From NCBI GenBank assembly GCA_965221125.1, contig CBDCRW010000005.1:32001-96000 (forward strand): 64,000 nt of DNA, read 5' to 3'. The stretch is from Alphaproteobacteria bacterium (GTDB lineage: Bacteria; Pseudomonadota; Alphaproteobacteria; UBA828). Each line of letters opens with the position of its first letter. The stretch's first letter is position 1. Positions 50,569 to 58,925 of this stretch are shown piece after piece. Made by a program: the position numbers and the translations under genes. Under the pieces are notes generated by a model that saw nothing but the letters and a program-made list of their open reading frames with translations, ran no database searches and was not told the origin of the DNA.

Positions 50569-51210
50569 TCAAGGGCGGACGCAACATCCATCCAGTATGA
50601 CTCGGGTCATCGTCTCGGCTGCGGTGTCGAAGTCATTTCTCGTGAGCCGTCGCTGCCCGAGCACGTCGGCGGCCAACATCCCGAAGTCCGCATAGAACTG
50701 GGTCGCCGACCACAGCATGATGAAGAAGTGGCGCGGGTCCACCTTTGCCATCTGCCTGCGGCGGATCCACTCCTCCACAACGTGGGCGCGCTGGTCTGTG
50801 ACCTCGCGAATGTGCTGGCGCTGGCGCCGCTCCAGGAACTGTGCACCGCGCAGGATCTCGTTGGCGAAGAAGCGGGATTCCGTAGCATGGCGGCGGGAAT
50901 ACTCGAGCTTCGCGCGAATGTAGGCAGCGATGGCCTCGCGCGGTTCGCGCTCGGACACAATGTGCTCGAAGGCTCGGTCCCATTCCTCGATCAGGCGCTC
51001 GATAACCGCCGCGTAGATGCTCTCCTTGGTCGGAAAGTAGTAGTAGACGTTGGTCTTCGGCAGGCCGCTGACCCGGGCGATCTCCTTCATGTGCGTGCCG
51101 TGAAAGCTCTTGTCGGCAAAGAGGCCGACGGCGGCGCGCAGGATCCTTTCCTCGTTCCGGGCCCGGATACGCGGCGTCCCCCCCGCATCTGCTCGCTTCG
51201 TTTTCGTCAT
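50569..51210 (-). CDS. TetR-family regulator, RutR-like
   Basis: [57 protein letters not shown]. Confidence 0.88.
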
Positions 51211-51300
51211 GCCTGTGCCCCACCTCACACTGCAATTTGCCGCGCCGTCGCTGTCGGCCTCAGTCTAACCCCGCTCGGCTGTTGCCGGGCCAGAAATTAC

Positions 51301-51350
51301 TTGACGTGCGTGTCATGTTGCCAGATCGTGAAACATGACATTGGTGTCAG
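51301..51350. promoter_or_regulatory. Two TGAC-N6-GTCA operators (RutR-box-like); the first overlaps a TTGACG -35
   Basis: TTGACGTGCGTGTCAT (51301-51316) and ATGACATTGGTGTCAG (51335-51350). Confidence 0.6.
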
Positions 51351-51379
51351 GTCCTGACGCATTGGAGCGGTCGGACGCC

Positions 51380-55367: not shown

Positions 55368-55402
55368 TCGCACGACCTCATGAGGAGGCCCCTTCGGGAG
55401 AC

Positions 55403-56983
55403 ATGATCGCCGCGAACCCGCCTGCCCTCAGTTGCCGCGGGATTCGCGTTACATACGGCCAGGTCACGGCGCTCGCCGATCTGGAAATCGCCTTCGCGCG
55501 CGGCGCCATCCACGCCGTGGTCGGCCAGAACGGCGCCGGCAAGACGACCTTCGCCCGCGTCGCGGCGGGTCTTGTCCGGCCCGACGCGGGTTCGCTTGCT
55601 ATTGACGGCAGCCCCTTGCGGCTCGGTCGGGTGGCGGGGGCGCGTGCGGCAGGGGTCGAACTCGTTCACCAGAGCTTCGCGCTGCCGCCCTCGTTTACCG
55701 TGGCAGAGGCGCTGGAATTCGGTGCCGGCGGCGGCATCGGCCTCTACAGCCGTCGGCGGCTCCTGCAGCGATGCCGCGAGCGGCTCGCAGCCCTCGATCT
55801 GGAAGTCGATCCCCGCCGGCGCATCCGAGACCTGCCGGTGGAAGCGCAGCAGGGCGTTGAGATCGCCCGCGCGCTGGTGACCGACGCGCGTGTGCTCATC
55901 CTGGACGAGCCGACCGCGGTGCTGCCTCCAGCCGGCATCGAGGCGCTGTTTGAGCGTATCCGCGGCCTCAAGCGGCAGGGAGTCACGATCATCCTGATCC
56001 TGCACAAGATCCGCGAGGTGATGGCGGTTGCGGACACGATCTCCGTCCTTCGCGGCGGTCGGCTGGTCGCAGGGCCCATTCCCCGAGAGCGAGCGGAGGA
56101 AAGGCGCATCGCCGAGATGATCGTCGGCCAAGGCGAGGCCGAGGCCGTCGGTGCGGACGATGCCCGGGCGCTTGTCGGAGCGGCGCCGGTTCGGCGCACG
56201 GCCTCTTGGGATGCAGGGGCCGCCGCGGCGTCCGCCTCCGGCGAGACAGTGCTTGATCTCGCGGGCGTGAGCACGGCGGAGGACCTGGAGGAGCCACCGC
56301 TGGATGGGGTTTCGCTCACGGTCAGGCCGGGAGAGATCGTCGGCGTCGCCGGCGTCCAGGGCAACGGCCAGCGGACGCTGGTGCAAGCGATCGCCGGACT
56401 CGCCGATGTCACGGGCGGCGATGTCCACCTGAACGGCAGCCGCGCAAACCGGACCAGCGCCGCAAACCGACGGGCATTGGGCCTTCGGGTTATCCCGTTC
56501 GAGCGCAACATCGAAGGCCTCAGCCTCACCAGCGCGCTGTGGGAGAACTGGTCCGTCCGCGAGCTTCTGCAACGACCGTTGTTCAGCCTGGTCGATCCGG
56601 CCGCGCTGCGCCGGCGCTGCGACGAGGCGCTCCAGGCCTGGGGCGTGCGCTATGCGTCCGCGACCCAAAACGCCGGCGCCCTTTCCGGCGGCAACGCGCA
56701 GAAGGTCATCCTCGCGCGCGAGATCGATGAAGACGCGCGCCTTATCATCGCCGCCCAGCCGGCGCGCGGGCTCGACATCGGCGCCACTGCCTTCGTCTGG
56801 TCGGCGCTGCGCGAGGCGGCCGGGAGGGGCTGCGGCGTGCTGCTGATCTCGTCCGACCTGGACGAGCTCTTCGACATCAGCCACCGCTTGGTGGTGATGC
56901 TCTCGGGCCGCATCGTCGCAGAGTTCGTCCCGCCCTACGACATTGCGGCCGTGGGCCGCGCCATGACCGGGGCGTCCGCATGA
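55403..56983 (+). CDS. Nucleoside/sugar ABC ATPase (two domains)
   Basis: GQNGAGKTT, ILDEPTAVL, GVQGNGQ, LSGGNAQK, RGLDIGA. Confidence 0.92.
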   Translation: MIAANPPALSCRGIRVTYGQVTALADLEIAFARGAIHAVVGQNGAGKTTFARVAAGLVRPDAGSLAIDGSPLRLGRVAGARAAGVELVHQSFALPPSFTVAEALEFGAGGGIGLYSRRRLLQRCRERLAALDLEVDPRRRIRDLPVEAQQGVEIARALVTDARVLILDEPTAVLPPAGIEALFERIRGLKRQGVTIILILHKIREVMAVADTISVLRGGRLVAGPIPRERAEERRIAEMIVGQGEAEAVGADDARALVGAAPVRRTASWDAGAAAASASGETVLDLAGVSTAEDLEEPPLDGVSLTVRPGEIVGVAGVQGNGQRTLVQAIAGLADVTGGDVHLNGSRANRTSAANRRALGLRVIPFERNIEGLSLTSALWENWSVRELLQRPLFSLVDPAALRRRCDEALQAWGVRYASATQNAGALSGGNAQKVILAREIDEDARLIIAAQPARGLDIGATAFVWSALREAAGRGCGVLLISSDLDELFDISHRLVVMLSGRIVAEFVPPYDIAAVGRAMTGASA

Positions 56984-58026
56984 GCGGCATCAGCATCCGC
57001 GCGGGCGCGGTGATCCGCACGCTCGCCTTCATCGTGGTGGCGCTCGCGCTCTGCGGCGTCGTCTTCGAGCTCGCCGGCTACTCCGCCCTCCTGATGTTCG
57101 AAAGCGTCGTCGAGGGCGCCTTCCTGCGCGCGGGCGGCTGGGCGCAGAGCCTGCGTTGGGCGCTCCCGCTCTTCATCACGGCGACCGGCGTCGCTATCTC
57201 ATTCCGCTGCGGCTTCTTCAACATCGGTGCACAGGGCCAATTCTACGTGGGCGCCATCTGCGCCGCCTTCGTCGCCGATGTTCTCGGCGGCGCACCGGCC
57301 GCCCTCGTGCTGCCGGCGACCTTCCTCGCCGGCATGGCGGGCGGTGCGCTCTGGGCGCTCTGGCCGGGCTATCTCAGGCTCCGCTCCGGGACCGACGAGG
57401 TCATTACCACCTTGATGGGCAACTTCATCGCAGCGCTCGCGCTGGTCTGGGTCACCTCCGGCCCGCTCAAGGACCCCTCCGGCACCGGTCAGCAGGCGGC
57501 GAGCCCGCTGCTGCCGGCGGCCTATCGCATCAGCGATTCCCAGGGCATCTCGCCCGCCATCATCGGCATCGCCGCCGCCGTCGCGCTCGCGATGTGGGTC
57601 CTGGTCAACCGCACGCCCTTCGGCATGCTGGCGAGCCTGGCCGGGCGGAACCCGACCATGGTGCGCTTTCAGGGTGCGCGCCTCTGGACCCTGGGACTTT
57701 CGAGCTTCCTCATCAGCGGCGGGCTGGCCGGGCTCGCAGGTACCATCGAGCTTCTCGGCCCGACCGGGCGCATCGCGAGCGGCTTTCTGCCCGGCCACGG
57801 CTTCACCGCAGTGCTGATCGCGCTGGTCGCGAACCTCTCGGTGCTCGCGACTGCGGTCGTCAGCATGTTCTTCGGCGGCCTTGCATCGGCTGCGCTCTAC
57901 CTGCCGATCCTCGCCGGCCTGCCGGCCGCCGCCATCGACGTCTTCAACGCCTCCGTCGCGCTCTTCATCACCGCGAAGTCGGGATTGCTGGACCGCCTGC
58001 TGCGGGCAGCGAGGCTCCCGACATGA
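56980..58026 (+). CDS. Nucleoside ABC permease 1
   Basis: FNIGAQGQF, EVITTLMGNF. Confidence 0.9.
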   Translation: MSGISIRAGAVIRTLAFIVVALALCGVVFELAGYSALLMFESVVEGAFLRAGGWAQSLRWALPLFITATGVAISFRCGFFNIGAQGQFYVGAICAAFVADVLGGAPAALVLPATFLAGMAGGALWALWPGYLRLRSGTDEVITTLMGNFIAALALVWVTSGPLKDPSGTGQQAASPLLPAAYRISDSQGISPAIIGIAAAVALAMWVLVNRTPFGMLASLAGRNPTMVRFQGARLWTLGLSSFLISGGLAGLAGTIELLGPTGRIASGFLPGHGFTAVLIALVANLSVLATAVVSMFFGGLASAALYLPILAGLPAAAIDVFNASVALFITAKSGLLDRLLRAARLPT

Positions 58027-58925
58027 CCGAGTTCCACGAGTTCATGGTGGCGATCCTGCGCTCCGGCACGCCGCTGGTCTACGTCACCATGGCGGGCGTC
58101 ATCGCCCAGCGCGCCGGCGTCTGGCACCTCGGCCTCGAAGGCGTGATGATCGTCGGCGCCTGCGCGACGATCCTCGGCATCGTGCTCACCGGCTCGTTTG
58201 CGGCCGCCATCGTCATCGCCTGCGTGCTCTGTGTCGCCGCCTCGGTCCTGCTCTGGTTCGTGATCGAGAAGCTGGGCGCCAACCCCATCATTGCGGGACT
58301 CGGCCTCACGGGACTCGGAATCGGCGGGACAGCGCTCGCCGTCCAGGCGCTCTTCGGCAGCCTCGCTGCCGTGACCGCACCCTTCGGCGTGCCCAGGCTG
58401 GGCGCCGCCTTCGGCCCCTACGGCGTGCTCTCGATCTTTGTGCTGATGATGCCCTTCGTCGTCTGGAGCATGTGGGTGCTGCTCTGCCGCACGCGCTTCG
58501 GCCTGCGGCTGGCCGCTGCCGGAGAGCACCCGCTGGCGGCACGCAGCGTCGGCACCGATCCGGCCCGTGTCAGGCTCATCGCGCTCGCGGCGGGCGGGGT
58601 TCTCTGCGCCATCGGCGGCGCTGAGCTCGCGGCCGGCGGTCTCACCATCTTCGCTCAGAGCATGACCGCTGGGCGCGGCTTCATGAGCTTCGCCGCCGTC
58701 ATCTTCGGCGCGGGCCACCCCATCGCAGCCACCTTCGCCGCGATGTTCTTCAGCCTGGTGGGTGTTGCGGGCATCAGGCTACAGCTTCTCTTCGGCGCGA
58801 GCATCCCGCACGACGTGCTGCTCTCGCTGCCCTATCTGGCGACGATCCTCGGCGTCTGGATCAGCGGCCGTATGCGCGGCGGCGCCAAGGCCGCCACCGA
58901 GGCCTCGGAGTTGCGCGACTATTAG
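58023..58925 (+). CDS. Nucleoside ABC permease 2
   Basis: GLEGVM, RTRFGLRL.A.GEHP.AA.SVG, TAGRGFM, LPYL.T. Confidence 0.9.
   Translation: MTEFHEFMVAILRSGTPLVYVTMAGVIAQRAGVWHLGLEGVMIVGACATILGIVLTGSFAAAIVIACVLCVAASVLLWFVIEKLGANPIIAGLGLTGLGIGGTALAVQALFGSLAAVTAPFGVPRLGAAFGPYGVLSIFVLMMPFVVWSMWVLLCRTRFGLRLAAAGEHPLAARSVGTDPARVRLIALAAGGVLCAIGGAELAAGGLTIFAQSMTAGRGFMSFAAVIFGAGHPIAATFAAMFFSLVGVAGIRLQLLFGASIPHDVLLSLPYLATILGVWISGRMRGGAKAATEASELRDY

Follow-up and report, generated by a model that had tools for sequence, protein, structure and literature searches.

Why does a gene related to those of uracil-DNA glycosylases stand at the head of a run of oxidoreductase and transporter genes? The question is raised by positions 50569 to 58925 of the stretch of DNA analysed here, 64,000 nucleotides of contig CBDCRW010000005.1 from an alphaproteobacterium (assembly GCA_965221125.1), which we call the window. 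Gene identities in the window were taken from the list of open reading frames (ORFs) together with Pfam and NCBIfam scans. An earlier note on this sequence had described a TetR gene divergent from genes for a UNG-like protein, a GMC oxidoreductase, a NIPSNAP protein, a BMP binding protein, an ATPase and two permeases, and every gene of this run was found where it had been placed (Table 1). The UNG-like protein is called UDGL below. Our answer, held tentatively and at a little less than even confidence, is that the run is a mobile pyrimidine-utilisation operon in which the substrate of UDGL is a free uracil compound and not DNA.

Fold, motifs and family of UDGL

UDGL gave no match to any Pfam family. 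Against the NCBIfam UNG models it scored 57–74 bits, all under cut-off (the best being 74.2 against 162), and against TIGR00628 it reached 69.6 bits with a cut-off of 185.75. A phmmer search of the PDB returned 42 distinct sequences at E ≤ 0.01, with a best value of 4e-12, and all 42 are named uracil-DNA glycosylase (one as 'glycosylase' only). The AlphaFold2 model, built with 63 family sequences, had a predicted local distance difference test (pLDDT) score of 94.7 and a predicted template-modelling (pTM) score of 0.92. When this model was compared with the PDB in Foldseek, every listed match was a family-1 UNG, with a probability of 1.00 and a TM-score on target length of 0.58–0.74; the best was 5x3g (7.9e-11). 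Judged from these sequence and fold matches, UDGL is a descendant of a family-1 uracil-DNA glycosylase.

The relatives used for alignment (50, then 63, all full-length) were taken from a library of 1.84 billion proteins, in which the search gave 2008 hits at 1e-3 and 79 at 1e-30; 10 canonical UNGs for comparison came from contigs. UDGL of the window carries the motifs GQDPYP, LLLN and HPAAAD. The motif G and P, F116, N192, H212, W216, P218, G240 and P268 were invariant in the 50 relatives, and D103, Y105 and H267 were conserved in at least 90% of the members in both the 50- and the 63-sequence alignment. F116, the stacking Phe, and N192, the LLLN Asn, align with pocket residues of UNG. In the HMMER alignment to the M. 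tuberculosis UNG, the 'PL' of HPSPLS fell in an insert state without a counterpart in UDGL, and the MAFFT alignment with the canonical UNGs gave the same motif B deletion, with His-Pro alone retained. The SPLS of motif B is deleted in the window's UDGL, its relatives have variable insertions there, and the wedge is lost family-wide. The earlier note had read GQDPY and LLLN as kept and HPSPLS as changed to HPAAAD; the motif check and both alignments agree with that description. The Pro-rich (PPS) and Gly-Ser loops of UNG clamp the DNA. In UDGL the prolines of the former are mostly gone, and in the latter the Gly is retained and the Ser replaced (GD in the window).

UDGL thus shares with canonical family-1 UNG the fold, GQDPY, the stacking Phe, the LLLN Asn, the catalytic His-Pro and a C-terminal '(I/V)xW'. 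Unlike canonical UNG, it is about 55–60 residues longer and has a longer N-terminal part, insertions of 8–9 and ~24 residues before LLLN and a 4-residue insertion after LLLN with a new invariant His; it lacks the SPLS wedge, the Gly-Ser serine and most of the Pro-rich loop, and it is encoded in a catabolic operon. The ratio of nonsynonymous to synonymous substitution rates (dN/dS) against the window copy was 0.19–0.39 in 14 comparisons, and by this measure UDGL is under purifying selection. By the alignments, UDGL has an intact uracil pocket and both the catalytic Asp and His; the leucine wedge is missing and the DNA clamp is incomplete.

The UDGL-GMC-NIPSNAP triad and its importers

Neighbourhoods were compared at 25 distinct loci having a UDGL homologue with at least 55% identity: the window, L001–L007, L015, L018, L103, L113 (pSymA of Sinorhizobium meliloti) and L145–L157. 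L144 coincides with L002, and the two were counted once. UDGL followed by GMC and then NIPSNAP, or remnants of them, was present at 25 of the 25, which lie in several alphaproteobacterial families and on Sinorhizobium megaplasmids. In the window only 3 nt separate UDGL from GMC, the other gaps in the operon are 77 nt and 35 nt, and 4-nt overlaps occur three times (GMC/NIPSNAP, ATPase/permease 1 and permease 1/permease 2). No terminator-like site was found on the plus strand anywhere in the run 51335–58925. The earlier note had taken the UNG-like gene as part of a catabolic uptake operon and not as a stray repair gene, and the linkage to GMC and NIPSNAP at all loci upholds this.

The operon also decays. 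At L147 (genome G815) GMC is in three fragments, NIPSNAP is a 23-residue remnant and only a stub of the transporter is left; at L150 (G810) NIPSNAP is reduced to 21 residues; at L149 (G808) a 3.2-kb insertion parts GMC from NIPSNAP; and GMC of L003 carries one stop. The UDGL frame stays open in the decaying copies L147, L149 and L150. Two database 'fusion' proteins (P0124 and P0142) seem to be UDGL and GMC joined through a deletion.

The triad occurs with three types of ATP-binding cassette (ABC) importer. It is joined to a BMP system at 19 loci, plus the remnant at L147. A PotD-like system accompanies it at 3 loci (L003, L150 and L151), each with a 175-aa deaminase of the cytidine deaminase (CDA) fold, a vicinal oxygen chelate (VOC)/glyoxalase protein and a RutR-like TetR; one genome, G812, has both the PotD type and the BMP type. 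An NMT1-like system is found at 2 loci (L015 and L006), with a PF12831 flavin adenine dinucleotide (FAD) oxidoreductase and a LysR regulator. L015 is a second triad copy in the window's own genome (G000:C6:590368-593216; L015 7869-10705, minus strand), without a BMP importer, and its UDGL, GMC and NIPSNAP are 74/83/94% identical to those of the window. There the triad lies downstream of LysR, enoyl-CoA hydratase, the FAD oxidoreductase and the NMT1/THI5-like ABC genes, and L006 has the same layout. A 2-oxoglutarate (2OG) oxygenase gene is also present at L015; L150 has a 2OG oxygenase 79% identical to that copy, and the L006 contig ends short of the corresponding position. The best PDB match of this oxygenase was an ethylene-forming-type enzyme.

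Accessory genes vary between loci. Deaminase genes of two unrelated folds occur at 6 of the 25, and a RihA-like nucleoside hydrolase gene at 2 (L018 and S. meliloti). Orthologous ATZ/TRZ-type amidohydrolases (64–74% identity) stand behind the permeases at L018, L103 and S. meliloti, and their nearest solved relatives are methylthioadenosine/S-adenosylhomocysteine (MTA/SAH) deaminase, 8-oxoguanine deaminase and triazine hydrolases. An allophanate hydrolase gene adjoins the operon at L103, and urea-carboxylase-type genes adjoin it at L005. The invariant core is the triad, and the importer, sometimes with a nucleoside hydrolase and a deaminase, is an exchangeable add-on.

Relatives of UDGL at 30–42% identity have other neighbours, so the catabolic context is a property of the UDGL clade and not of the whole family; conservation of the neighbourhood, which the earlier note had named as a check to make, holds down to 55% identity and is not seen in these relatives. 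On plasmid 2 of Variovorax sp. RA8 (L114, 10347-12879) a 42%-identical homologue lies 14 nt behind a gene for a 551-aa amidohydrolase, without GMC or NIPSNAP; this amidohydrolase is not orthologous to the operon deaminase (26–27% identity over 154–179 residues). Near an Alloyangia homologue are a divergent exonuclease-domain gene, two genes upstream, and, three genes downstream, a gene for a site-specific integrase; a Paracoccus homologue lies in an HNH/defence-like island.

The GMC protein scored 666 bits against PRK02106 (cut-off 605) and 565 against the BetA equivalog TIGR01810, which is under its cut-off of 732. Its best PDB matches were 9lq0 (1.8e-133) and 8b7s (1.1e-121), and its dN/dS against the window copy was 0.15–0.28 (14 comparisons). 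NIPSNAP orthologues had a mean column identity of 88% and dN/dS of 0.04–0.23 (14 comparisons), and the PDB relatives of NIPSNAP are all uncharacterised. On other plasmids, NIPSNAP paralogues with 48% and 43% identity stand behind aldehyde dehydrogenase and 3-hydroxy acid dehydrogenase genes in unrelated operons and give no clue to the substrate. A complex prediction of GMC, NIPSNAP and UDGL scored 0.00 in two runs in which the controls were not folded, and says nothing for or against binding.

The transporter of the window resembles BMP/PnrA nucleoside importers in its binding protein, its double-domain ATPase and its two BPD_transp_2 permeases, and in the RihA-like hydrolase that follows the orthologous genes in S. 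meliloti and G247. Unlike them, it has a binding protein that is only remotely similar to any solved BMP protein (best match 7.4e-22). Solved BMP relatives bind nucleosides, adenine, riboflavin or atrazine. A constant triad with interchangeable importers, deaminases from two folds, the RutR-type regulation described below and the retained pocket together suggest that a uracil-type small molecule is broken down.

Regulator and candidate substrates

The best PDB match of the TetR protein was E. coli RutR (6.6e-39). Its scores against the RutR models were under cut-off (165 bits against 368 for the equivalog TIGR03613, and 150 against 230 for PRK15008). A RutR-like TetR gene lay inside the fetched stretch at 20 of 25 loci. 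An exact TGAC-N6-GTCA box, single or repeated, stood upstream of UDGL in 22/24 loci, the two box-less loci being the LysR-type ones, and two boxes 33–35 bp apart were present in 16/24. For the 15-mer TTGAC-N6-GTCA, 0.25 occurrences would be expected in the window and one was found; it resembles the E. coli RutR box. The conserved boxes of RutR type support the earlier note, which had described the TetR gene as RutR-like.

RutR binds uracil through L74, W77, L78 and W167, and in the E. coli protein Leu78 clashes with the C5-methyl of thymine and excludes it (PMC4325133). Among the operon regulators W77 was kept in 21/21 orthologues and W167 in all 20 for which that position aligns (L146 being the exception), and the L74 position is Ile or Leu. 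The Leu78 position is Asp in 21/21. Such a C5-facing Asp may keep a 5-substituted pyrimidine in play as the effector. The regulators are thus like E. coli RutR and PydR in having TetR_N and a YcdC-like C-domain, both Trp residues and palindromic operators with TTGAC/GTCA arms, and unlike them in falling under the equivalog cut-offs, in the change of Leu78 to Asp and in controlling another operon. The Asp-bearing set also includes a TetR paralogue (81% identity) at G000:C5:435487-436131, beside genes resembling those of 3-hydroxyisobutyryl-CoA hydrolase and 3-hydroxyisobutyrate dehydrogenase.

From the gene content, fold, motifs, linkage, operators and selection described above we infer a substrate, an order of steps and a part for NIPSNAP as follows. 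The RutR-type TetR would hold the operon off through two TGAC-N6-GTCA boxes. The ABC system would import a pyrimidine (deoxy)nucleoside or a similar N1-substituted uracil, and amino forms would be deaminated first where a deaminase gene is present. UDGL would then use the chemistry of UNG to hydrolyse the N1-C bond in the free uracil compound, and the BetA-like GMC with NIPSNAP would oxidise an alcohol group, either on the released sugar or on the substrate. The freed uracil would enter the reductive pyrimidine pathway and lift repression. A free (deoxy)uridine-like substrate is favoured because hydrolysis of the N1-C bond is the simplest chemistry for the kept Asp and His of UNG. Dihydropyrimidinase scored above cut-off in 5/5 carrier genomes checked, which therefore provides an onward route for freed uracil; RutA was above cut-off in 0/5 of them.

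Several points weigh against this reading. We know of no UNG that acts on free nucleosides, and the choice of substrate is a guess. The RihA-like hydrolase at L018 and in S. meliloti makes a second ribonucleoside N-glycosidase look redundant. PotD-like and NMT1-like importers are not known nucleoside systems, and a free base fits them at least as well; a RutR-type regulator normally senses the base, and with Asp in place of Leu78 its effector may differ from plain uracil. In UDGL itself, the Ser aligned with the PPS-loop serine is retained in at least 90% of the family. Finally, a glycosylase without motif B, BdiUng, does excise uracil from single-stranded DNA (PMC5449639); the step in the earlier note from a lost Leu loop to a lost DNA activity is unsafe for this reason.

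The alternative that survives best, which we still consider quite doubtful, is that the triad acts on the free pyrimidine base, with UDGL binding the uracil ring and carrying out chemistry other than glycosidic cleavage. For example, an Asp-activated water could add to C6 and GMC could oxidise the 6-hydroxy-5,6-dihydro form to barbiturate, a flavin route in place of the molybdenum uracil dehydrogenase. We know of no precedent for it. It would explain why one triad is combined with three unrelated importers and why a nucleoside hydrolase is found at so few loci, and the RihA-like hydrolase and deaminase, where present, would already supply uracil. A regulator that senses the base agrees with it (PMC4325133), as do the allophanate and urea-carboxylase-type genes that adjoin two of the operons. 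Against it, the reductive pathway marker is already present in all five genomes checked, and the retained catalytic Asp and His of UNG most simply mean glycosidase chemistry. In the 522-aa database representative P0131 an N-terminal half of UDGL (P0131 residues 2-157 share 69% identity with UDGL residues 17-172) is combined with a molybdopterin cofactor-binding domain (residues 143-444 match MoCoBD_2 at 6.5e-66), which would suit the free base; the protein may be a real join of neighbours or an assembly chimera.

The barbiturase relic named in the earlier note counts in favour of the same alternative. An AtzD/TrzD-family pseudogene does abut the operon, in the window and at L002 only, so it is not conserved with the operon; it may stem from a barbiturase or from a cyanuric acid hydrolase. 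Its domain is not intact, profile positions 17-254 of 358 being left, with stops, frameshifts and an IS110 split. The 5' piece was read in two frames (PF09663 profile 17-122 and 46-159; profile 17-196 with one TAA in the genome search), and the 3' piece covers profile 157-254 with 2 TGA stops and is the same piece as at L002. The operon is like the oxidative pyrimidine pathway in having an AtzD/barbiturase-family pseudogene beside it and, at two orthologous operons, urea or allophanate genes, and unlike it in having no molybdenum dehydrogenase and in that the AtzD gene is an unconserved relic. The AtzD family was found in 2/4 carrier genomes searched and was absent from G247 and G762, which argues against the free base. 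Its intact genes argue against it too: they lie far from the operon (G000:C4:990844-991914, G000:C2:150962-152032 and G048:C1:3248984-3250054), scored above the cyanuric acid hydrolase cut-off and each stand directly beside a CodA-like amidohydrolase gene; hydantoinase-like and carbamoylase-like genes are also near the G048 copy.

A slightly poorer prospect is that UDGL is still a uracil glycosylase of DNA, probably single-stranded, co-induced with pyrimidine uptake against misincorporation from deoxyuridine triphosphate (dUTP), while GMC and NIPSNAP serve an unrelated catabolism. The uracil-pocket and catalytic residues are all retained, and the best structural match, the unconventional Nitratifractor UNG, is titled UNG in the PDB. 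Distant relatives (30–34% identity) stand beside exonuclease, integrase or HNH genes on plasmids, and the genome search of the window's genome found no match above the UNG cut-off. Against this, three other PF03167 UDG-superfamily genes lie elsewhere in that genome, and repair therefore does not depend on UDGL. The linkage of UDGL to GMC and NIPSNAP is complete, with a 3-nt gap, and extends to loci without a nucleoside importer; the wedge is lost throughout the family with variable insertions at that loop; and the operon is carried by mobile elements and its genes decay together (L147 and L150).

BdiUng (Blr0248 of Bradyrhizobium diazoefficiens), which represents a UDG family without motif B, also speaks for this prospect. 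It is a rhizobial UDG-like protein of similar length, has GQDP and lacks the Leu loop, PPS and GS, and it still excises uracil from single-stranded DNA (PMC5449639). Its architecture differs from that of UDGL: GQDPA lies close to the N-terminus, residues 90-94 read YVMVN and the fold resembles that of family 4, and the abstract and two sections of the paper mention no operon link (PMC5449639). BdiUng was not among the PDB sequence or fold matches of UDGL.

Least probable of the three, and in our view an outside chance, is a pathway for 5-hydroxymethyl pyrimidines (5-hydroxymethyl-deoxyuridine, 5hmdU; 5-hydroxymethyluracil, 5hmU; 5-hydroxymethylcytosine, 5hmC), in which the nucleoside would be cleaved by UDGL either ahead of or following oxidation of the 5-hydroxymethyl group by GMC. 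The tyrosine of GQDPY in UNG excludes 5-substituted uracil, and in UDGL this residue is nearly invariant; no decarboxylase is evident, and no 2OG oxygenase was found in the BMP-type operon (19 intact loci and the L147 remnant). The nearest solved relatives of the BetA-like GMC protein oxidise primary alcohols, which suits such a pathway, and deaminases could convert 5hmC forms to 5hmU forms. The 2OG oxygenase of the PotD- and NMT1-type loci matched thymine dioxygenase at 8.2e-35, ninth in the PDB ranking and behind the ethylene-forming-type enzyme. The regulator favours a 5-substituted effector, with the Trp sandwich retained and Asp at the C5-facing position (PMC4325133), whereas BdiUng, which accepts 5hmU, has GQDPA instead of GQDPY (PMC5449639). 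The 5-hydroxymethyl-deoxyuridine example in the earlier note thus fares poorly as a substrate of UDGL and better as a hint about the effector. A hydroxymethylpyrimidine (HMP)/thiamine-pyrimidine substrate, which the NMT1-like and PotD-like binding proteins had suggested, was set aside, as the UNG pocket and the RutR-like regulator indicate 2,4-dioxo pyrimidines.

Layout, spread and meaning of the operon

The features of the window are collected in Table 1; on both sides the operon is bordered by mobile DNA. The true start of UDGL is most likely ATG 51380 rather than the ORF start at ATG 51335, because homologues measure 281–284 aa and operator box 2 overlaps ATG 51335. The ATPase most likely starts at ATG 55403, which is preceded by GAGGAGG. 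An ORF at 59292-62627 (+) was rejected as spurious, the real gene there being that of the TrwC relaxase on the minus strand; a TrwC relaxase neighbour was also found beside the operon at L002. Further upstream, at 44915-48106 (-), lies a gene for a 1063-aa superfamily 1 (SF1) helicase-like protein (AAA_11/AAA_12) with weak, sub-threshold NCBIfam matches to anti-phage ProA, PLuB helicase and Hhe. The end of the IS110 element recurs in the genome at C5:55456, C5:718281, C2:67009, C6:486740 and C4:447961 (96–100% identity over 86–91 residues).

Table 1. Genes, operator boxes and flanking features of the operon, in window positions.
Feature	Position	Strand	Evidence or remark
RutR-like TetR repressor gene	50569-51228	-	PF00440 at 2.2e-12, PF08362 at 8.9e-43; divergent from operon
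UDGL (UNG-like, 283 aa)	51380-52231	+	family-1 UNG fold; Leu-intercalation loop gone
GMC (BetA-like) FAD oxidoreductase	52235-53893	+	PF00732 at 1.8e-56, PF05199 at 1.8e-39
NIPSNAP family protein, 108 aa	53890-54216	+	PF07978 at 9.7e-30, residues 4-104
BMP/PnrA-family substrate-binding protein, twin-arginine-like leader	54294-55367	+	PF02608 at 1.8e-34
ABC ATPase, two ABC domains	55403-56983	+	PF00005 in two stretches
ABC permease 1	56980-58026	+	PF02653 (BPD_transp_2)
ABC permease 2	58023-58925	+	PF02653 (BPD_transp_2); orthologues at other loci
Operator box 1, TGAC-N6-GTCA, cTTGACGTGCGTGTCAtg	51299-51314	.	motif match
Operator box 2, TGAC-N6-GTCA, caTGACATTGGTGTCAgg	51333-51348	.	34 bp past box 1
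AtzD/TrzD-family amidohydrolase pseudogene, 5' piece, frameshifted	about 48231-48751	+	PF09663
IS110-family transposase gene	48736-49839	+	PF01548 at 3.2e-16, PF02371 at 6.6e-22
AtzD-like pseudogene, 3' piece	50279-50566	+	PF09663; abuts TetR gene
TrwC-type relaxase, conjugative-element flank	59541-62852	-	PF08751 at 1.8e-72
TraD/TrwB-type coupling protein, flank	62617-63960	-	PF10412 at 2.9e-109

We take the operon to be horizontally mobile. In a class-wide sample it was present in 2 of 400 other genomes, and in a phylum-wide sample, searched with the family profile and with at most 6 first-look candidates scored per genome, in 1 of 400. Within the window's order it was found in 20/49 genomes (the window's own, G000, included), that is, in 18/20 of the window's genus, 1/1 of a sister genus and none in the other 12 genera; it is near-core in the window's genus. 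PLSDB gave 39 matching plasmid records, of which 34 are Sinorhizobium/Ensifer megaplasmids at 54–58% identity, and where a match has an annotated feature the annotation reads 'uracil-DNA glycosylase'. Carriers of the pSymA type are S. meliloti SM11, BL225C and Rm41; strain 1021 is not among the matches. A preprint on S. meliloti hybrid strains (10.1101/296483) reports that Rm2011 depends on pSymA to use cytosine as a nitrogen source; the pSymA of this strain is not among the matches, and the result was set aside as having no bearing on the operon.

A word-index search gave 949 hits, with 120 near relatives listed at 73–100% identity, and a single-protein scan of genome contigs gave 8 loci. The metagenome scan (family alignment with the GQDP pattern) returned mostly canonical UNGs, and only L019 and perhaps L020 as family members. 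Runs containing 0.23–0.35 of the stretch's sampled words are labelled sponge metagenome (11 runs from 3 studies) or marine metagenome (3 runs from one further study). One run labelled as a sponge metatranscriptome had contigs at least 95% alike on TetR, the NIPSNAP-BMP junction and BMP (window 50872-51053, 54095-54286 and 54361-55141, with 2–40 differences per piece). DNA may be in that library, and the contigs are a weak hint of expression in a relative.

Returning to a pyrimidine-utilisation operon with UDGL acting on a free uracil compound, full-text searches aimed at such an operon found no paper on a UNG-like/GMC/NIPSNAP operon. A further-reaching proposal, which as a whole we consider unlikely, is that the triad is a three-protein pyrimidine-degrading unit of undescribed kind, made up of a UDG-fold protein taken off DNA, a BetA-like flavoenzyme and NIPSNAP. 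It would (a) hydrolyse a free deoxyuridine-type nucleoside and oxidise the sugar, or (b), more boldly, hydrate and oxidise the uracil ring (to barbiturate) or act on a 5-hydroxymethyl pyrimidine. Such a unit would be served by at least three importers, and conjugative elements would spread it among Alphaproteobacteria associated with sponges and among rhizobial megaplasmids.

To our knowledge, members of the UDG superfamily are known only as DNA-acting enzymes. If UDGL does act on a free metabolite, it would clearly exemplify the recruitment of a repair fold into catabolism, and it would add a route of bacterial pyrimidine or nucleoside use. The label 'uracil-DNA glycosylase' in GenBank may be a systematic mis-annotation for the UDGL clade. 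The operon lies on megaplasmids of the cultivable S. meliloti and strain 1021 is unmatched, which offers natural plus/minus pairs. NIPSNAP, a family without a known bacterial function, gains a defined and strictly conserved partner.

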